This document shows positions 1,141 to 34,449 of a stretch of 64,000 nucleotides of DNA, piece by piece. The position numbers and the translations under genes were made by a program. The DNA comes from an uncultured Acidobacteriota bacterium (GTDB taxonomy: Bacteria; Acidobacteriota; Thermoanaerobaculia; Gp7-AA8). The stretch lies in the NCBI GenBank assembly GCA_963741955.1, contig CAVUKB010000004.1:512001-576000 (forward strand), given 5' to 3'. The first letter of the stretch is position 1, and each line of letters opens with the position of its first letter. The notes under the pieces are model-generated. The model was not told the origin of the DNA. It searched no databases and saw only the letters and a program-made list of their open reading frames with translations.

Positions 1141-4100
1141 TCAATGAAAGTCGTGGCTCTCCACGTGTGCATACACTTCCAACGGCCAGAACCGCTCCGC
1201 CTTCACCGAGGGTTGCCCTCCGTTCTTCTGCAGCACGCCCTCGATCACCAGCCCGGCCGATCCCACGATCATCGGACGGTGCTCCTTGAACAGCCCCGGA
1301 TTGACGATCGCCTGGGACATCCCGGTCTCGTCCTCCAGAGTGAGGAAGACGAATCCCTTCGCCGTTCCCGGGCGCTGCCGCACGATCACCGCTCCTGCCG
1401 TTCTCACTGTGGCCCCGTCTCTTCCCCGCAGCAGCTCCGCGGCCGTGAGGACTCCTTTCTTCCTCAGCTCACCGCGGAAGTACTGCATCAGATGAGGTCC
1501 CGCAGTGAGGTTCATACTGTCGTAGTCGGCCAGAGTTTCGCTGAAGGGAGTCATCTGCGGGAGGGGGGAGTGCGCTCCGTCACGCTCGGTCCGATCGAAG
1601 AGCGGCCCCGCATCCCGCGCCGCCCGTGCCGCCTGCCAGAGCGCTTCCCGTCGAGCCAGGCCGAACCCGGCCAGGGCTCCGCTGTAGGCGATCTTCGTCA
1701 TCTGGTCGTCCCGAAGCCGGCATCGCCGCGCCAGGTCCTGCACGTCCTCGAACCCTCCTTTCGACTGCTCCTCTTCGATTCGTTTCCCCTCGGTCTGATG
1801 GATCCCTCGTATGAACCGCAGGCCCAGACGGACGCCTCCGTTCTCCCACCGGCACATCCACCCCGACTGGTTCACGTCGATCGGGAAGACCTTCACTCCG
1901 TGCCGCTGCGCGTCCTTGATCAGCGTCGCCGGATGATAAAACCCCATCGGCCACGCATTCAGTAATGACGCGTAAAAGGCCGCCGGATGCCGCGCCTTGA
2001 TGTACGCACTCGCGTAAGCGATGAGGGCGAAACTCGCCGCATGCGACTCGGGGAAGCCGTACAGCGCGAACGAGGTGATCGACTTCACGATGTCGTCCTG
2101 CGTCTTCCCGGTGATTCCTCTCGCGCTCATCCCGTCGCGCAGTTTTTTCTCGATCTCGGTCATCCGTTCCACGGACCGCTTGAAGCCCATGGCCCGCCGC
2201 AGCTCTTCCGCCTCGCCGCCGGTGAATCCCGCCGCAACCATCGCGATTCGCAGCAGCTGCTCCTGAAAGAGTGGGACGCCGAGCGTACGTTTCAGGATCG
2301 GTTCGAGCGACGGATGCGGATACTCCACCGGAACGCGTCCCTGGCGCCGGTCGAAGAACGGACGGATCATCCCGCCGACGATCGGGCCGGGGCGGATGAT
2401 CGCCACCTGCACCACGATGTCGTAGAAATTCTTCGGTGCATTCCGCGGGAGCGACGCCATCTGCGCACGACTCTCCACCTGGAAGACTCCGACCGTATCC
2501 GCGTCGTTCAGCATCCGGAAGACGCCGGGGTCGTTCTGTGGCAGGTGCGCGAGATCGACCTCCACCTTTTCGTGCTCGCGGATCATCGGGATCGCCTCTT
2601 CCATCGCCGCGAGCATCCCCAGCCCGAGGAGGTCGACCTTGATCAGGCCGAGATCGGCGCAATCGTCCTTGTCCCACTGGATGACGACGCGTCCCGGCAT
2701 CGATGCGGGCTCCAGCGGCACGACCTCGTCGAGCCGCCCTCCCGCCATCACCATTCCTCCCGAGTGCTGCCCGAGGTGCCGCGGAAGATTCTGGATGCGC
2801 AGCCAGAGGCGGACCAGATGCCGCACACGCGCGCTGTCGGTATCGAGCCCCGCTTCCTTCATTTCCGTCGGAAGCTCGCTCACCTTGTCGCGAATCTCGC
2901 CGAACGTCCACTGTCCGATCTGCTTCGCGAAACGCTCGATCTGCTCCGGCGAGAAGCCGAGAGCCTTTCCGACCTCGCGCGCTGCGGAGCGCTCACGATA
3001 CGTGATCACGTTCGCGGTCATTGCCGCGCCGTGCTTTCCGTACTTCCGGTACACGTGCTGAATGACTCTTTCCCGTTGATCCCCCGAAGGCAGATCGAGA
3101 TCGATGTCCGGCCATTCGCCACGTTCTTCGGAGAGGAATCTCTCGAACAGAAGATCCATCTTCACCGGATCGACGGCGGTGATGGAGAGGGCGTAACAGA
3201 CCGCGCTGTTCGCCGCCGAACCGCGACCCTGAACCATGATGTTGCTCTCGAGGCAGAAGCGGACGATGTCCCAGACGATCAGGAAGTAGCCGGCGAGATC
3301 GAGCTTCTCGATCATCGCCAGCTCGCGCTCGATCTGCGCCTGCGCACGCGCGGTGAGGGGGCGGAAACGTGCCCCTGCGCCGTTCCAGGTGATCTGGCGC
3401 AGCAGCGACATCGGCGTCTCGCCCGGTGGAAGAGGGTAGTCGGGAAAGCGGTAGCCGAGATCGGCGAGAGTGAAGTCGAGCCGCGAGGCCAGTGCGACCG
3501 TCGCGTCGAGAGCCTCGGGAAGATCGGCGAAGAGATCGCTCATCTCTGCGGCGGAGCGGACGTGACGCTCCCGATGCGCGGCAAGAAGACGTCCTGCAGT
3601 GTCGAGGTTCGTGCCGTGACGGATGCAGGTGAGGACGTCGTGCAGCTCCTTGTCGACCGGCCGTGCGTAGCGGACGCCGTTGGTCGCGACGATCGGGAGG
3701 CGGAGCGAGCGCGCGAGCTCGAGGAGAGCCTGATTGCGGTGCTCTTCGTCGCGCCGGTGATGGCGCTGCAGCTCGACGTGGAGGCGGCCGGGAAAGAGAC
3801 TCTGCAGATGCATCATCACGTCGCGCGCGGCGTCGAGTCCGCCTGCACTCAAGGCGTGCGCGACGGGACCTTCTTCGCTCCCGGTCAGGCAGTGGAGGCC
3901 TTCGCTGTGCGCGGCGATGAGATCCCAGTCGTACGCGGCTTCACCTTTCGGCCGGTCGAGCGCGCCGGCAGTGAGGAGCTTCGAGAGGTTGCGATAGCCG
4001 GTGCGATTCTCGACGAGGAGCGTCAGACGCGTACCGCTCTCGTCGAACGGAGGAGTGTCGGGGACGAGACGGAGTGAAGCACGAGGCTCGGGACTCGAGG

Positions 4101-4536
4101 CTCGGGATTCGAGCGGCGAGCGGCGAGCGGCGAGCGGCGAGGAGGACGCGCCGATCGAGAGCTGCTCGTCGTCTCCGGATCGAATCACGTCGCTCGATCT
4201 CATGAGGGTGACTTCGGCGCCGACCAGGGGACGAAGTCCTGCCTTGCGTGCGGCGCCGTAGAAACGCGGCGCGCCATAGACGCCGTTCCGGTCGATGAGA
4301 GCCATGGCAGGGAGGTCGTGCCGCGTCGCCGCGTCGACCAGATCCTCGGGGAGCGACGCGCCGTCGAGGAACGAGAAGGCGGAAGCCCCATGCAGTTCGA
4401 CGTAAGGCCGGACGTTCGTCCGTCCCGCCGGCGGCTTCCACGAGCGCTGGCGCAACTTCTCCTTGCGCGCTCCGGCGGAGCCGCTCATGCGATGCCCGAG
4501 GGCATCGAGATCACGGGATGGCGGGGTGCGGTTCAT
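1141..4536 (-). CDS. dnaE2: Error-prone DNA polymerase III alpha subunit DnaE2 (ImuC)
   Basis: PHP start YVELHGASAFSFLDGAS, GRGSAANS, PDIDLD, KVDLLGLGML, YGFPESHAASFA, OB-fold VRQRPGTAKG and the DnaE2-specific C-terminal SHDFH (S[RH]DF[RH]); lies downstream of imuA/imuB. Confidence 0.97.
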   Translation of the reverse strand: MNRTPPSRDLDALGHRMSGSAGARKEKLRQRSWKPPAGRTNVRPYVELHGASAFSFLDGASLPEDLVDAATRHDLPAMALIDRNGVYGAPRFYGAARKAGLRPLVGAEVTLMRSSDVIRSGDDEQLSIGASSSPLAARRSPLESRASSPEPRASLRLVPDTPPFDESGTRLTLLVENRTGYRNLSKLLTAGALDRPKGEAAYDWDLIAAHSEGLHCLTGSEEGPVAHALSAGGLDAARDVMMHLQSLFPGRLHVELQRHHRRDEEHRNQALLELARSLRLPIVATNGVRYARPVDKELHDVLTCIRHGTNLDTAGRLLAAHRERHVRSAAEMSDLFADLPEALDATVALASRLDFTLADLGYRFPDYPLPPGETPMSLLRQITWNGAGARFRPLTARAQAQIERELAMIEKLDLAGYFLIVWDIVRFCLESNIMVQGRGSAANSAVCYALSITAVDPVKMDLLFERFLSEERGEWPDIDLDLPSGDQRERVIQHVYRKYGKHGAAMTANVITYRERSAAREVGKALGFSPEQIERFAKQIGQWTFGEIRDKVSELPTEMKEAGLDTDSARVRHLVRLWLRIQNLPRHLGQHSGGMVMAGGRLDEVVPLEPASMPGRVVIQWDKDDCADLGLIKVDLLGLGMLAAMEEAIPMIREHEKVEVDLAHLPQNDPGVFRMLNDADTVGVFQVESRAQMASLPRNAPKNFYDIVVQVAIIRPGPIVGGMIRPFFDRRQGRVPVEYPHPSLEPILKRTLGVPLFQEQLLRIAMVAAGFTGGEAEELRRAMGFKRSVERMTEIEKKLRDGMSARGITGKTQDDIVKSITSFALYGFPESHAASFALIAYASAYIKARHPAAFYASLLNAWPMGFYHPATLIKDAQRHGVKVFPIDVNQSGWMCRWENGGVRLGLRFIRGIHQTEGKRIEEEQSKGGFEDVQDLARRCRLRDDQMTKIAYSGALAGFGLARREALWQAARAARDAGPLFDRTERDGAHSPLPQMTPFSETLADYDSMNLTAGPHLMQYFRGELRKKGVLTAAELLRGRDGATVRTAGAVIVRQRPGTAKGFVFLTLEDETGMSQAIVNPGLFKEHRPMIVGSAGLVIEGVLQKNGGQPSVKAERFWPLEVYAHVESHDFH

Positions 4537-4539
4537 GGT

Positions 4540-4582
4540 GAAAAGATGAATGCAGAATGCAGAATTCAGAATTGAGAAAAGA
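4540..4582. repeat. Left arm of 43-bp inverted repeat built from GAATGCA heptamers
   Basis: gaaaagatgaatgcagaatgcagaattcagaattgagaaaaga; reverse complement of 5424-5466 with 3 mismatches. Confidence 0.95.
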
Positions 4583-4612
4583 AACCGGGGCTCGGGGCTC
4601 GAGGCTCGGGGT

Positions 4613-4795
4613 TAGCCCGCATTTCTCACACCATCTCGTCGCGAGGAGGCGGAGAGTGGCCTGGATGCAAGGCGCGCCTCGCTTCGGCGACGAAGGCATA
4701 GCGGTGACTATGTCGAGGAGCCGAAGAGGGGCTCAACGCAGCAGACAGGCCGCTATCCGGCTCCGCAGCAGAGATGGTGTGAGAAATGCGGGCTA
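4613..4795. mobile_element. 183-bp MITE-like element, copy 1
   Basis: Perfect 25-bp terminal inverted repeats tagcccgcatttctcacaccatctc / gagatggtgtgagaaatgcgggcta, (C/T)TAG at the ends, no credible ORF; same-length homolog at 21405-21587. Confidence 0.85.
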
Positions 4796-4968
4796 GGGGT
4801 TGTGCGTATCTCCCTTTCGTCATTTCCTGCTGCGAAACTCCGGCACCCCTTCGGGGGGCGACGAATGATCGCGCTCCTCTCTTTCCGGTGGCGTCTGCAT
4901 TCTGCATTCGTCCTTTCCTGGATTTCATGCTGAAAGCACAATTGAGAAAAGAAACCGATGACGTGGCT

Positions 4969-5406
4969 CTACACACTACTTTGTGCGTTCTTCCTTTGTG
5001 ATGTCGTTCGGACGATCGAGGTCAGAATCGCGACGAGCTCATTAGACTCCTGAAGGATCTCAGCGATCCTTCGCGAAGCGACGATGCCGGTTGCGGCGAA
5101 GAGGCGGAGCCAGTAATGAGATTCGCGGGCTTCCTTCAATGCGATGCGGCATTTCGAGATGAAGTCTGCACGGCTCTGTGCGGCGTGAGCTTCTTCCAGA
5201 TTTGCCCCGAGTGAAGTCCCTGATCGAAGGAGTTGCGCCGCCAGCGTTCGCGGTGCTTTGGTTGTGCTCATGTACTGATAGAGTTTGACTATTCTGCATG
5301 CGAACTCGAACGAACGCTCATAGATGTCTCTCGGCTTTTCAGGGGCATTCGCTTGGATCTTGCGATCACCGGTCAGTTCATCCATCCCGTGACTCTCTTT
5401 CGTCAT
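4969..5406 (-). CDS. Four helix bundle protein (23S rRNA-intervening sequence protein / Avd-like family)
   Basis: IYERSFEFACRIVKLY...QLLRSGTSLGANLEEAHAAQSRADFISKCRIALKEARESHYWLRL matches the family pattern QLxRSxTSIGANxxEA...SxxDFxxKxxIAxKExxExxYWL. Confidence 0.93.
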   Translation of the reverse strand: MTKESHGMDELTGDRKIQANAPEKPRDIYERSFEFACRIVKLYQYMSTTKAPRTLAAQLLRSGTSLGANLEEAHAAQSRADFISKCRIALKEARESHYWLRLFAATGIVASRRIAEILQESNELVAILTSIVRTTSQRKNAQSSV

Positions 5407-5423
5407 TTCCTTCGTCTCTCTTC

Positions 5424-5466
5424 TCTTTTCTCAATTCTGCATTCTGCATTCTGAATTCGTCTTTTC
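5424..5466. repeat. Right arm of 43-bp inverted repeat (TTCTGCA heptamers)
   Basis: tcttttctcaattctgcattctgcattctgaattcgtcttttc; ends 2 nt from the imuB stop codon (5469-5471). Confidence 0.95.
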
Positions 5467-5468
5467 TA

Positions 5469-7166
5469 TCAGTCGTAGATTCCGTCCACATACCACTCTC
5501 CCTCCGCCCGCGCTCTGTAGACGCGATAGATTCCGCCCCCCACCATCTCGACGTCCCAGTAGTCGCGCTCGACCGGATCGTCCGACCACCATCCTTCCTC
5601 CAGTGACCACGGTCCCGAGGCGACGCGAACCGCACCGTGGATCTCGAGAGGTCGCGGCGTGTATCCCTCCTGCTTCGAGACATTGCGGATGGTGTGGATC
5701 TCGCGGAGGTGAAGATCCCCAAGGGCGAAAGTACCGCCGTTCGAAGGAGCGGCACCGTCGCTGATCACTTCGACCGCCAGAGGAGGACGGAAGACGCGGA
5801 CGGCGAGGAGACCGCGCCAGCGGCGCGGAGCGCGGCGGACGGAGGGTGGTGACGGGGGATCGTAGCGTGCGATTCCGTAACGCTCGGGACGCCACGCATC
5901 GATGGTGCGGGGAGTGCCGACCCGGTCCGCCCCGACCATTGCCGCGATCTTCGCCACCGTGGTGGCGAGGAGGTCCGGGGAGAGCTCCGACGGCCCGAAA
6001 ATCGAGAGCTGACCCTCCCGCGGGCGGTCGGGATGGGCGATGAAGGTGAAGCCGGTGACCGGCGCTCCGGGTGGAGCGGACTCGAGGTCGAGCCGTATCA
6101 GGGTGAGGATGGTCTTCACGTCACGGGTGGGAGCCGGAAGATCGATCGCCCGGACATGGAATCCTTCCGGCTCGAGCCGCAGCGCGACTTCGATGGTTCG
6201 ACAACTGTAGCCATGACCCTCCATGCGGCGCATCAGGCGGTCGAGCGCCGCATTGGCCATGAAGAGAAACGGCTCGAGAGTGACGATCGGCCACTCGAAG
6301 TCCATTCCTTCGCGGAATTCCGGAGGAGCCTGCCGGGGAATCAGCGGCCGCGTGTCGATCCCCCGCGAGCAGCAGTGCAGTGCGCGTCCCAGCTCTCCCA
6401 GACGGGTGGCCACCTCACCTTCGGGGAGATTCGCCAGCTGCCCGATCGACTCGATTCCCCATCGGCGCAACGTCGCGGCAATCTTCATTTCCGGTCCCAG
6501 ACGCTCGAGCGGAAGGGGAGCGAGGAACTGGGCCTCCTCGCCCGGTGCGACGATGTGCGGCGACTTCGGCAGCTCCGCCGCAATCCGCGCTCCCAGCTTG
6601 CTCGACGCGATGCCGACCCGTCCGGGGAGTCCCGCCGCACGCATCGCGAGGAGCGCTGCCTGGGCCAGGTTGTGCTCGTGGGGGAGCGGGGCTCGAGGCT
6701 CGGGGCTCGAGGCTCGCTTTTCTGGATCATCAGTCGTCGGTTCTGGATCTGAGACACGGGATGAATCGATTCGTGACGTTTTCTCCGAGCTCCGAACCTC
6801 GAGCCTCGAGTCCCGCGCTCCGAAGTACCGCTCCATTCCGCTGATGTCGAGAAACACCACCCCTCCCTCTGCGTCCTCCACACGTGGCGAGAATTTCTGG
6901 GCCGCTTCGAAGAGCGCCTCCTGGGCCGCGCGCTCGCATTCGGCGTCGCGCCCCCGTGCGATGAGCTTCGGAAGGATCGCCCGTGCCTGAGGGAGCGACA
7001 TTCCCGGCGTGATCCCCGCCTTTCGCGCACGACGCGTCGCCGAAGAAATGTGGGCCGCGCTCCCGTTCCCTTCCACGATCACCACCGCTTCCTGCAGGAG
7101 CTCCGGCTCGGCGCGGAGTCTCGCGGCGAGAGGAAAGAGAGGAACGAAGAAGCAGGCGAGTCGCAT
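5469..7166 (-). CDS. imuB: Y-family DNA polymerase-like protein ImuB
   Basis: ARKAGITPGMSLPQARA, FSPRVE...VFLDISG, FLAPLPLERL, LRRWGIESIGQLANLP, clamp-binding-like QLSIF, C-terminal GPWSLEEGWW...ERDYW...WYVDGIYD; catalytic acidic motifs not evident. Confidence 0.93.
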   Translation of the reverse strand: MRLACFFVPLFPLAARLRAEPELLQEAVVIVEGNGSAAHISSATRRARKAGITPGMSLPQARAILPKLIARGRDAECERAAQEALFEAAQKFSPRVEDAEGGVVFLDISGMERYFGARDSRLEVRSSEKTSRIDSSRVSDPEPTTDDPEKRASSPEPRAPLPHEHNLAQAALLAMRAAGLPGRVGIASSKLGARIAAELPKSPHIVAPGEEAQFLAPLPLERLGPEMKIAATLRRWGIESIGQLANLPEGEVATRLGELGRALHCCSRGIDTRPLIPRQAPPEFREGMDFEWPIVTLEPFLFMANAALDRLMRRMEGHGYSCRTIEVALRLEPEGFHVRAIDLPAPTRDVKTILTLIRLDLESAPPGAPVTGFTFIAHPDRPREGQLSIFGPSELSPDLLATTVAKIAAMVGADRVGTPRTIDAWRPERYGIARYDPPSPPSVRRAPRRWRGLLAVRVFRPPLAVEVISDGAAPSNGGTFALGDLHLREIHTIRNVSKQEGYTPRPLEIHGAVRVASGPWSLEEGWWSDDPVERDYWDVEMVGGGIYRVYRARAEGEWYVDGIYD

Positions 7167-8122
7167 TATGACGAGGCTCGGGATTCGAGGCTCGAGGCTC
7201 GTGAAACACGGGGCTCGAGCCTCGAATCTCGCGTCTCTTCCTCATCTCTCGCCGCTCGCCGCTCGCGTTCCGAGCCTCGAGCCTCGAGTCTCGAGCCTCG
7301 CGTCTCTTCCTCGTCTCTCGTCTCAACCGCCTCGCTCGCCGCCAGTCGCAGCATCTCCTTCGCTCCGGGACGGTGACGGCGATGCTTTTCCACCACCAGC
7401 TCCGACTCGACGCCGGTGAGGATGCGTGGCGAACGACCCACCCCCTTCCACAGCGCCTTTCCGTGGCTGCTCTTCACGACCGCCTCGGGGGCGGTCGCGG
7501 TCAGATGGAACGGAGTCGAGACGAAGAGCGCGCAGCCGTACGACGCAGCGGCGCGCGCGAGACGCACCCAGCTCGCGTCGGCGACACGCCGGCCACGGAG
7601 CTGCACGCCGAGCTCCACGACCACCAGAGGGAACCCCGTCGCGATCACCAGCTCCGCCGCATGCACCGCGTCGCGCACCGAGGGAGGACGGATCCAGAGG
7701 AGGCGATCCAGCTCGACGCCTGCGGCTGCGGCGTGCTCGGGGTCGAAGTGGTCCCCGTGGTCGATGAGAACCGCCGGCTCGCCGGAGGAGGTGACTGCCG
7801 CGAGCGCTGCGAGGACGGTCGAGAAGCGTCCCGAAGAGCGCGTTCCGGAGATCTCGGTGAGCTCCCCCCGCGCGAGCCCGCCGTCGAGAATCCGGTCGAG
7901 TGGAGCGACCGTGGTCGGGAGGGCCTCCCGCCGCTGGTGGGAGTGGCCGCGCTGAAGCTCCGCCGCGCTGGTGATCCGGTGCCGCAGAGATTCGTCCAGG
8001 CTCTCCCGGAGGCGGGCGAGGTCGTCGCGCAGAGGCGGCGGTTCCGGCGCGGGAGCTTCGGCCGGCGCATCATCCTTCCAGGGAAGGGGAAACTGGAGTA
8101 ACCAATCGTAAGCACTTGACAT
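7166..8122 (-). CDS. imuA: RecA-like mutagenesis protein ImuA
   Basis: LDRILDGGLARGELTEISGTRSSGRFS (degenerate Walker A), FDPEHAAAAGVELDRLLWIRP; TAATG overlap with imuB; last ~50 aa are encoded by heptamer repeats. Confidence 0.88.
   Translation of the reverse strand: MSSAYDWLLQFPLPWKDDAPAEAPAPEPPPLRDDLARLRESLDESLRHRITSAAELQRGHSHQRREALPTTVAPLDRILDGGLARGELTEISGTRSSGRFSTVLAALAAVTSSGEPAVLIDHGDHFDPEHAAAAGVELDRLLWIRPPSVRDAVHAAELVIATGFPLVVVELGVQLRGRRVADASWVRLARAAASYGCALFVSTPFHLTATAPEAVVKSSHGKALWKGVGRSPRILTGVESELVVEKHRRHRPGAKEMLRLAASEAVETRDEEETRGSRLEARGSERERRAARDEEETRDSRLEPRVSRASSLESRASS
7172..7300. repeat. Heptamer (GAGGCTC/GAGCCTC) inverted repeat inside the 3' end of imuA
   Basis: 7172-7201 and 7271-7300 are reverse complements at 28/30 positions; direct repeat ctcgcgtctcttcctc at ~7228 and ~7297. 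Confidence 0.9.
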
Positions 8123-8209
8123 GGTTGTACTTGTCTCCTGCGGGCCGCGGCCCGCGCACCCCTCCGAGGCCGCCTCGGATGCGCCCCCATTCGCGGAGGG
8201 GTAAAAATA

Positions 8210-8238
8210 AACTTAGGCGGTAAAGAGGCGTAAGTCAA
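8210..8238 (-). promoter_or_regulatory. Putative sigma70 promoter of the imuAB-dnaE2 operon
   Basis: Minus strand TTGACT-17 nt-TAAGTT about 90 nt upstream of the imuA ATG, which has an AGGAG Shine-Dalgarno. Confidence 0.6.
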
Positions 8239-8619
8239 GCGCGAGGATAAGAGAACAAGTCAGGCGTGGGCGTTGGAATCGTAGCAGGATGATCCAGGCT
8301 TCGTCCGTTGGAAGATGGGAGCGAATCCAATGAACCGCTTCGCGGTGAACTTCGGCAATCCGCGCGCATGGATCACCCTCGGCATCCTGCTCGGTGTTCG
8401 TCGCCCTCTCCATCGCACTGCCGGTGCTCCTCTGACCGCCCCTCCGCCCGCAGGTGTTACGATTTCCGAGTCACGACATGGGTGCGGCCGTTCCGGTCGC
8501 TGAGGAGCGAAGCGAACCCCCTCCGCTCTCGTGAGGAGCGGTGGAAGACGAGGCGGGCGCTCGCTTCGGGGCCATGAGAGGGATGTTCGCTCCACCGACG
8601 AATGGAGGAGGATTCGGCG

Positions 8620-16995: not shown

Positions 16996-17400
16996 ATCGA
17001 GGATCGAGGATCTGAAAGGCATCGAGGATCGAGGATCGAGGATCCGAAAGGCATCGAGGATCGAGGATCGCGGATCGAGGATCTGAAAGGCATTAGAAAT
17101 CTCTGATGGAAGATCTGGAATCCGGAATCTGAGAGAGATCGAGGACCGTCGATCGAGGAGTGATCGGCATCGCGGATCGGGGCGGGGGAGTCCCGCGTGT
17201 CCTCGATCCCGAAAGCCTCGCAGGTCCTCGATCTCAGATAGTTTCTCCTTGCTGGCCTTCAGATCCACGATCCACGATCCCAGATGCTTTCGATCCTCGA
17301 TCCACGATCCACGATCACAGATGCTTTCGATCCTCGATCCTCGATCCACGATCACAGATGCTTTCGATCCTCGATCCTCGATCCTCGATCCTCGATCCTA
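16996..17400. repeat. Opposed GAGGATC / GATCCTC heptamer arrays between divergent genes
   Basis: GAGGATC runs at ~16996-17160 and GATCCTC/GATCCAC runs at ~17200-17400, with recurring interruptions (gaaaggcatc / gatgctttc). Confidence 0.92.
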
Positions 17401-17420
17401 GATGTCTCTCTTCCCTTACA

Positions 17421-34041: not shown

Positions 34042-34449
34042 GATCGAGGATCGAGGATCGAGGATCGAGGATCTGAGAGGATCGAGGATCGAGGATCGGG
34101 GATCGAGAATCGGGGATCGGGGATCGAGGATCGGGGATCGAGGATCGAGGATCGAGGATCTGAGAGGATCGAGGATCGAGAATCGAGGATCGAGGATCGA
34201 GGATCGAGGATCGAGGATCGAGGATCGAGGATCGGGGATCGAGGATCGAGGATCGAGGATCTGAGAGGATCGAGGATCGAGGATCGAGGATCGAGGATCG
34301 GGGATCGAGAATCGGGGATCGGGGATCGAGGATCGAGGATCGAGGATCGGGGATCGAGGATCGAGGATCGAGGATCTGAGAGGATCGAGGATCGAGGATC
34401 GAGGATCGGGGATCGAGAATCGGGGATCGAGGATCGAGGATCGAGGATC
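34042..34449. repeat. ~410-bp GAGGATC heptamer microsatellite (roughly 55-58 units)
   Basis: GAGGATC with GGGGATC and GAGAATC variants and four periodic 3-nt 'tga' interruptions (gaggatctgagaggatc). Confidence 0.97.

Follow-up and report, generated by a model that had tools for sequence, protein, structure and literature searches.

The window analysed here is a stretch of 64,000 nt (C4:512001-576000) from the genome of an uncultured Acidobacteriota bacterium, G000, whose 5.44 Mb (63% G+C) are assembled in 16 contigs. On its minus strand it carries an imuA-imuB-dnaE2 operon, and between the last two genes lies the subject of this report, a 927-nt insert in which a small gene of family PF05635 is enclosed by two inverted arrays of a 7-nt repeat. 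The genes and the outer arms of the insert are as follows.

7166-8122, minus strand: imuA, RecA-like (Pfam RecA).
5469-7166, minus strand: imuB, Y-family-like, of the inactive-polymerase type (Pfam IMS, 5e-19, and IMS_C).
5424-5466, minus strand: outer 5′ arm in the mRNA sense; inverted repeat of 43 nt, 93%; period 7 in Tandem Repeats Finder (TRF).
4969-5406, minus strand: PF05635 gene (23S rRNA intervening sequence (IVS) protein, or four-helix-bundle protein), 145 aa; Pfam E 1.1e-21.
4540-4582, minus strand: outer 3′ arm in the mRNA sense; pairs with 5424-5466 and ends 3 nt ('acc') ahead of the dnaE2 ATG.
1141-4536, minus strand: dnaE2, with PHP, DNA_pol3_alpha, finger, HHH_6 and OB domains.

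A RecA-like ImuA, a Y-family-like ImuB and a DnaE2 polymerase are encoded co-directionally in one cluster, as is typical of this type of operon, and the imuA TAA overlaps the imuB ATG (TAATG). Read along the minus strand, the order is the imuB TGA (5471-5469), two nucleotides ('ta'), the 5′ arm, the PF05635 open reading frame (ORF), a stretch of repeats, the 3′ arm, 'acc' and the dnaE2 ATG (4536-4534), and the imuB and dnaE2 reading frames are unbroken up to the arms. The arms are complementary at 40 of 43 positions, stand 841 nt apart and make the longest inverted pair within 4300-5700. Both consist of GAATGCA, GAATTCA and GAATTGA units with GAAAAGA caps, the 5′ arm on the mRNA reading GAAAAGAC-GAATTCA-GAATGCA-GAATGCA-GAATTGA-GAAAAGA, and the three mismatches reflect a differing order of unit types, not scattered point changes. 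A 43-nt arm with three mismatches gives a score of 34, against a maximum of 14 in shuffles of 85 related loci (20 each).

A preliminary description of this DNA, made from the letters alone, had proposed the capped heptamer arms, this order of parts (including a transposable element between gene and 3′ arm) and a dnaE2 start codon lacking a Shine–Dalgarno sequence, and in each of these respects it was right. No GGAGG-like or Shine–Dalgarno-like motif occurs in the 14 nt preceding the dnaE2 ATG (ttcatcttttcacc). The start codon itself is the one assigned there, since dnaE2 homologues at nine related loci align starting at ORF residue 1-6 and a conserved PPSRDLD motif begins four codons past the ATG. 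The insert contains no promoter-like site, and its operon strand shows nothing like a terminator; no Rfam family was found in 4300-5700 at E up to 1.

The small protein matches PF05635 with 77.5 bits, against a cut-off of 33.8, over model positions 4-105 of 106, in agreement with the four-helix-bundle identity first given to it. When a profile of the window protein and 11 relatives (A1) was compared with the PDB, it matched 2RLD_A with an E value of 2.5e-32 over profile positions 3-117; the 2RLD entry has five chains. The sequence GAAGGAA stands directly ahead of the first ATG of the gene, which is single-copy at the DNA level (one locus in the genome by blastn).

The insert is made up of two adjoining units, a gene-bearing unit B and a gene-less unit A of the same heptamer, with the following parts.

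4927-5466, minus strand: unit B, the gene cassette, ~540 nt; arms 5424-5449 and 4927-4952, 26 nt, 88%.
4927-4952, minus strand: inner 3′ arm of unit B, degenerate; a 31-nt direct copy of 4557-4587 was also detected.
4540-4917, minus strand: unit A, a gene-less heptamer hairpin; arms 4894-4917 and 4540-4563, 24 nt, 92%.
4826-4893, no strand assigned: dispersed 68-nt module; 10 genome matches of at least 70% length at 92-100% identity, itself included.
4613-4795, no strand assigned: miniature inverted-repeat transposable element (MITE), 183 nt, with perfect 25-nt terminal inverted repeats.
4586-4611, no strand assigned: second heptamer array, GGCTCGG-type, beside the 3′ arm; TRF period 7, 3.7 copies.

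Unit A hosts both the 68-nt module, which also occurs inside other gene-less GAATGCA hairpins of the genome, and the MITE. The latter has 74 near-full-length matches in the genome, itself included (95.6-100% identity for the 12 best among the matches listed), which with its perfect terminal repeats bears out the earlier recognition of it. Stripped of later insertions the cassette would measure ~540 nt, and armed cassettes in relatives are ~390-790 nt long, mostly 410-620.

The junction was then compared across relatives. A search of 41 related genomes, counting G000, detected ImuB in 31 (two loci returned from the unpublished genomes G022 and G030 were not used), and 19 loci contain the imuB end together with the dnaE2 start. 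Their junctions contain the following.

L001, L002 (two copies), L004, L010, L012, L013, L014, L016, L025 and L026: a same-strand PF05635 gene (10/19).
L008: a bare hairpin of inverted heptamer arrays (1/19).
L009: a GIY-YIG gene in an inverted repeat of at least 58 nt (1/19).
L018: a MazE-type antitoxin and a PIN toxin (1/19).
L017: an antisense ribbon-helix-helix (RHH) gene (1/19).
L029 and L007: fillings of 232 and 253 nt, respectively, with no assigned content (2/19).
L027 (TGATG overlap), L005 (11 nt) and L030 (~50 nt with GGAGG): short or empty junctions (3/19).

The preliminary description had suggested looking in relatives for an empty site with stop and start adjacent, and L027 and L005 are such sites; the empty sites display classical translational coupling. 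It had also expected the same geometry elsewhere. In all 11 armed inserts the 3′ arm indeed ends close to the dnaE2 start, at 0, 1, 1, 3, 5, 7, 11, 15, 15, 16 and 20 nt, and the 5′ arm begins 2-35 nt past the imuB stop. Tandem heptamers that end a few bases short of a start codon are also what characterises intergenic heptamer repeats. The tight fit of the inserts is partly trivial, since whatever enters a gap of 0-11 nt necessarily borders on both stop and start. On the ImuB tree, occupied, empty and otherwise filled junctions are interleaved, an example being the empty G004 beside the two-copy G008. The PF05635 ORF is intact in all 11 junction copies.

Two of the related loci have particular features. 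At L009 (G005) the outer arm of the GIY-YIG element follows the imuB TGA directly, and the dnaE2 ATG lies within the opposite arm; the inverted repeat is long and not heptameric, and the motif 'ttgtcatcctgag' recurs inside the element. At L020 (G035), runs of GTCCTGG and GACCTCA heptamers lie ~200 nt into dnaE2, just before the contig end, and represent either another in-frame array or an assembly break at a cassette.

Arms of this kind are a habit of the family. The 41 genomes have 0-14 PF05635 matches each, mostly 1-8, and the survey took in 81 family genes on 80 loci plus six of G000 above the Pfam cut-off (87 in all), setting aside partial hits, the 14 copies of G037, most hits from the other families of the class and the unpublished genomes. 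The inverted-repeat score of the flanks reached at least 15 in 71 of 85 testable loci, as compared with 7 of 85 for a direct-repeat control and 0 of 1,700 shuffles, and most of these arms have period 7, with many different units. Other family genes, which the preliminary description had proposed to survey for such arms, do mostly have them. Of the 87 genes, 74 lie outside this operon. A wider set of 79 loci of this protein subfamily, spread over many phyla and with proteins 47-62% identical to the query, gave a score of 15 or more at 47 of 73 testable loci, and here the arm units are mostly GAA followed by four variable bases. A wide spread of the imuB-dnaE2 position across phyla was considered and rejected, as imuB and dnaE2 flank only three of these 79 loci, with a fourth breaking off after imuB; all are titled Thermoanaerobaculia.

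Thirteen of the 87 family genes sit at imuA-imuB or imuB-dnaE2 junctions, all on the operon strand. Two are at imuA-imuB junctions (L035 and L086), and one of these represents a fourth protein lineage. The tree of all 87 proteins, built on 123 columns and with many open forks, places nine of the 11 imuB-dnaE2 copies in one supported clade of 13 (Shimodaira–Hasegawa-like approximate likelihood ratio test, 95), whose other four members are L097, L101 and L109, at one other conserved junction, and L102, outside the operon. Twelve junction-clade members share 20 invariant columns and are 44-58% identical to the window protein. The junction copies of the sister family, L100 and L031, fall in other clades, and supported branches force at least three changes of junction label. 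With two of the 11 junction proteins outside the main clade, the tree points to at least three arrivals at the imuB-dnaE2 junction.

At the other conserved junction (L097, L101 and L109, in G019, G014 and G011, respectively), the upstream gene has ...GYWTVIGTGNAV.GWDPQL... at its end and the downstream gene ...YIVPGQPHI.L... at its start, and the arms are of GAGGATT or GAATTGA units. This site looks like one to which a copy moved, to be inherited thereafter.

Within the junction clade the heptamer itself differs between genera, being GAATGCA in G000 and G023, GAATGTT in G024 and G008, GAACGAT or GAACGCA in G009 and G006, and GAATTTC in G020 and G015. The frame around the units is conserved. 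G000, G006 and G009 have a common outer cap, (A)AAGAC, and inner GAAAAGA(G), yet their units are GAATGCA or GAACGAT; G015 and G023 have the common flank ccacgggNNgtagaa, yet AAATTTC or GAATGCA units. With a conserved frame and differing units, these are orthologous insertions in which both arms changed together. In all nine genomes compared, the heptamer of the cassette is found elsewhere in the same genome, and in eight of the nine it is the commonest of four tested, G020 being the exception. Exact two-unit patterns of the four heptamers are confined to this bacterial family and a sister family, bar one stray match, and are very patchy among genera (0 to 336 matches). A strict rule of one cassette to one heptamer was rejected, as G010, G016 and G020 are rich in GAATGCA and lack a GAATGCA-armed family gene in their assemblies. 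In G000 itself, heptamer families outnumber PF05635 genes. The heptamers of the arm occur at ~28 loci of the genome, many of them gene-less hairpins of 60-290 nt.

In the predicted RNA fold of 4525-5480 the outer stem is present in both the minimum free energy (MFE) and the centroid structure, with an MFE of -377 kcal/mol as against -307 ± 9 in 20 shuffles (z -7.9). Two adjacent local hairpins, corresponding to units A and B, provide an alternative fold of similar pairing content. The sequencing runs found for the stretch 3900-6100 were three DNA runs, all from soil metagenomes and a single study, with no RNA run among them. On the mRNA strand, the arm mismatches of 74 cassettes include 74 G·U and 83 A·C (binomial p 0.52), with G·U leading in 22 cassettes and A·C in 22, and 236 further mismatches are of other kinds. 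Since there is no G·U excess among the mismatches, selection for an RNA stem is not supported. The arms do have a polarity, the 5′ arm being G-rich (948 G-C versus 507 C-G pairs). Of the giant stem-loop envisaged in the preliminary description, the outer stem is thus retained in the predicted fold, but the idea that it is selected as RNA is not borne out.

The explanation that we favour, with a probability of roughly 0.6, is that the insert is a selfish, stem-enclosed cassette at a hotspot, tolerated since its arms can pair. A PF05635 gene with two inverted arrays of 7-nt repeats would make a compact insertable cassette, the design of the ORF-bearing IVS of 23S rRNA. Such a cassette would have lodged in the tiny gap of the translationally coupled imuB and dnaE2; later, a gene-less hairpin built of the same heptamer and the MITE would have been added to it. 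The junction appears to have been occupied for long in this bacterial family by one protein clade, common to eight genera (G000 included) and probably passed on mostly by descent, and losses and replacement by other selfish cargo seem also to have occurred. The mixed cargo now seen at the junction (GIY-YIG, MazE/PIN and RHH genes) points to a landing place for selfish genes, and of the two readings offered in the preliminary description, a self-neutralising mobile unit is the better.

As to how the insert is borne, the cassette is presumably co-transcribed with the operon, and the small protein would be translated from its own start. Pairing of the arms would place the insert in a side-loop and leave the imuB stop and the dnaE2 start adjacent, so that the insert would probably be tolerated. 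The joint change of both arms between genera, the usual match to the commonest heptamer and the lack of G·U bias suggest that arm complementarity is kept by a process at the level of DNA or of protein recognition, not by selection for RNA pairing. This genome-level process could be copying from or to the dispersed arrays, or a shared recognising protein. That RNA pairing is a by-product of such upkeep is likely but unproven.

Several points weigh against the selfish cassette. No target-site duplication is visible at the arm ends ('TGAta' versus 'accATG') or in the junctions of relatives that were read, and no transposase is encoded in the cassette, whose PF05635 gene alone among its ORFs matches a protein family; a partner enzyme elsewhere was not looked for. 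Movement of the cassette we infer solely from the protein tree and the empty sites. Both trees have many unresolved forks and do not discriminate between repeated gain and descent with precise loss, and the relatives are draft metagenome assemblies in which repeats break contigs. At least four protein lineages in one operon are far more than would be expected of random insertion, which leaves room for a tie to the mutasome. Finally, the GAATGCA-rich genomes G010 (168 matches) and G016 (182) have no GAATGCA-armed family gene in the surveyed assemblies.

Among the closest known counterparts are the IVS of 23S rRNA in Coxiella burnetii and Leptospira, which likewise have a PF05635 gene in the loop and terminal inverted repeats and are embedded in a host transcript; here too, terminal inverted repeats close a long predicted stem around an ORF. 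According to the part of PMC4990558 available to us, the C. burnetii IVS is 428-444 nt long, with an S23p ORF and a 28-bp terminal stem that is cut mid-stem by RNase III, which compares with ~540 nt and arms of 26-43 nt for unit B. Unlike the rRNA IVS, the cassette lies between protein-coding genes and not in 23S helix 45, and its arms are tandem heptamers. Excision by RNase III is a feature of the IVS, whereas a cut in the imuB-dnaE2 mRNA would sever the operon transcript and not leave a working ribosome. A further parallel is found in rRNA genes of the candidate phyla radiation (CPR), where 23S_rRNA_IVP and GIY-YIG ORFs are described as alternating at shared insertion sites, and versions lacking an ORF occur as well (PMC11270868, accessible portion). 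At the imuB-dnaE2 junction PF05635 genes, a GIY-YIG gene and gene-less forms similarly alternate between genera. The CPR insertions differ in their location, rRNA genes, and in being homing-endonuclease introns for the most part, and inverted heptamer arms are not among what the accessible portion reports.

Direct heptamer repeats have been described before, namely TAACTGA in Beggiatoaceae, cyanobacteria and Bacteroidetes, and TTTTGAA near recF and recO in Nostoc (PMC4679880; bioRxiv 10.1101/2022.06.06.494920, both as far as their accessible text goes). In the same portions of these two sources, such repeats end within a few bases of start codons, occur as many sets per genome, have no known binding partner and are direct, with one inverted set in 170. 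The terms 'S23', 'four helix' and 'intervening sequence' appear nowhere in the text of PMC4679880. In contrast to the TAACTGA-type repeats, the units here are of GAATGCA type, and their arrays either enclose a gene in inverted pairs or form hairpins. A full-text search, by which subscription journals are largely uncovered, yielded no description of PF05635 genes within inverted heptamer arrays outside rRNA.

The Correia elements of Neisseria, the repetitive extragenic palindromic (REP) and bacterial interspersed mosaic (BIME) elements and the palindromic elements of Rickettsia are small inverted-repeat elements that lie at gene boundaries or in frame and fold in the transcript. The heptamer hairpins in imuB and in the tail of imuA (see below) are placed like these; the cassette differs from them in bearing a gene and in its tandem heptamers, and no target-site duplication was seen. 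Compared with a terminal-inverted-repeat transposon, there are arm-like arrays at ~28 loci and gene-less hairpins, but the gene-bearing unit is single-copy.

The alternative that fares best is a post-transcriptional switch on the mutasome, which the preliminary description had also put forward and which we consider rather unlikely. Here the long mRNA stem would be the selected feature, either masking the dnaE2 start, which has no Shine–Dalgarno sequence of its own, until a ribosome finishing imuB melts the base of the stem, or being cut by RNase III such that imuAB is uncoupled from dnaE2 and the level of DnaE2 is set. The stem closes 2 nt past the imuB stop and 3 nt short of the dnaE2 start, the 3′ arm ends within 0-20 nt of the start in 11 of 11 armed inserts (with the ATG inside the arm at L009), and both the MFE and the centroid fold retain the stem. 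The genome encodes an RNase III, and the IVS of Coxiella, with the same gene family, is cut in its 28-bp stem by that enzyme (PMC4990558, in the part available). However, the geometry is explained by insertion into a 0-11-nt gap, and the local hairpins A and B compete with the outer stem. The arm mismatches lack the G·U excess (74 versus 83; 22 versus 22 cassettes), the junction holds unrelated cargo with and without arms while some genera have none, and the 74 cassettes outside the operon lie in many unrelated neighbourhoods. The switch thus finds no support beyond geometry.

It is also possible, if quite unlikely, that the small protein reads its own heptamer arrays (GAA and four variable bases, period 7) and acts in trans on the ~28 arrays. 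The protein would then be made together with the mutasome, from a damage-response polymerase operon, and the ~28 arrays at gene starts and ends would be either a hidden regulon, at the level of RNA or DNA, or the non-autonomous offspring of the cassette, with the protein spreading and homogenising the heptamer arrays. The match to the commonest heptamer in eight of nine genomes, the GAA core that travels with the subfamily across phyla and the joint change of arms at an orthologous site would fit such a role. Heptamer-rich genomes without a matching cassette speak against it, as does the length of the arrays, which peaks at four units and not five. Indeed, the related idea of five repeats for a five-part ring was unsupported, arm arrays peaking at four units (median 4.3); arrays of the genome at large peak at 4-5 units, with a tail to 58.

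Avd, a pentameric protein that binds nucleic acid, serves the mutagenic reverse transcriptase of diversity-generating retroelements. By analogy, the small protein could be an accessory of the error-prone polymerase complex, and its gene retained for that purpose, which we think improbable. PF05635 is homologous to Avd in the available part of PMC10053308, whose reference list also describes Xcc0516 as an assembly of five four-helix bundles. The window protein belongs to the same four-helix-bundle fold family as Avd (PDB 4DWL), 2RLD and 2GSC/Xcc0516; unlike at Avd loci, the ORF list shows neither a reverse transcriptase nor a template or variable repeat nearby. In favour of an accessory role are the 13 of 87 family genes in operon junctions of the 41 genomes, always on the operon strand and from at least four protein lineages, as well as the intact ORF in all 11 junction copies and the 20 invariant columns. 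Set against this, nine of the 19 relatives lack the gene at the junction, and in two of these nine imuB and dnaE2 are tightly coupled; others have GIY-YIG or toxin-antitoxin genes instead. Members of the junction clade itself are found at another junction (L097, L101 and L109) or otherwise outside the operon (L102), and in other phyla the subfamily has other contexts, the three of 79 wide loci with imuB and dnaE2 flanks all being titled Thermoanaerobaculia.

Chance similarity or an assembly artefact at repeats, for which one might cite the 16-contig, repeat-rich assembly and the capacity of repeats to misjoin contigs, is scarcely credible, given arms far above shuffles, the same arrangement at the same junction in independent assemblies of nine other genera and imuB and dnaE2 frames that are intact up to the arms.

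The insert sits in a genome rich in heptamer arrays. The genome has 505 period-7 arrays, and at a TRF score of at least 50 there are 277 arrays of period 7, as against four of period 6 and three of period 8. The 7-kb polymerase operon has eight arrays, compared with a mean of 0.65 per 7-kb window of the genome, a level reached by 76 of 10,655 such windows, which correspond to about nine separate places. Three further heptamer features lie within the operon.

~7165-7300, minus strand: gene-less inverted CGAGGCT arrays between imuA and imuB; one pair of 30 nt (93%) and a nested pair of 39 nt.
6681-6821, minus strand: inverted GGCTCGA/GGCTCGG arrays in frame within imuB (about residues 118-163); 36 nt, 81%.
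4110-4141, minus strand: perfect direct CGAGCGG array within dnaE2; TRF, 4.6 copies.

The CGAGGCT arrays are translated as a C-terminal tail of ImuA of ~50 residues, and alignments with relatives end at ~260-267 of its 318 residues. Similarly, 21 relatives match ImuB in two pieces, at about residues 2-117 and 164-565, skipping 118-163, and this in-frame pair resembles palindromic elements inserted in coding genes. The dnaE2 array lies in a Ser/Pro/Ala/Arg-rich insert of the PHP region, with no inverted partner in 3980-4200. Upstream of imuA, a TTGACT...TAAGTT promoter-like stretch was spotted by eye, and no inverted repeat that might be a LexA operator was seen in 8100-8420, the operator consensus of this lineage not being known to us; SOS control of the operon is assumed from its type.

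Elsewhere in the window, long period-7 arrays of GATCGAG type lie at 34042-34449 (57 copies), 16996-17083 (11) and 17262-17403 (19). This unit forms the arms of another PF05635 gene of G000 (C6:534950) and is the commonest heptamer family of the genome (70 arrays). The densest heptamer spot of the genome, outside the window at C4:119001-126000 of G000, has 17 period-7 arrays in 7 kb and two PF05635 genes (C4:119263 and C4:124897). At C5:1095965-1096531 and C5:1192204-1192564, three head-to-tail units of 160-270 nt each start with a GAATGCA/GAATTCA array, which shows that heptamer elements also multiply in tandem.

The polymerase operon is thus among the most repeat-dense places of the genome, and its ImuA tail and ImuB insert are a warning for annotation, as heptamer hairpins may be read through as protein. 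To our knowledge PF05635, a very large family, has no known function outside diversity-generating retroelements, and we likewise know of no partner for the heptamer repeats of bacteria. The two are linked at this locus and in its relatives, and a single coupled junction provides a natural series of empty sites, four heptamers, a bare hairpin and other selfish genes. The locus further contributes evidence that both arms change in concert and in place, the arrival of at least four protein lineages in one operon and a negative test for RNA-specific selection. Coupling in spite of a stem-enclosed insert, cutting by RNase III and recognition by the protein of its own arms are questions that now become open to reporter and binding assays. 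If the protein does read its own arrays, the heptamer repeats would gain their missing partner, and PF05635 would gain a function.

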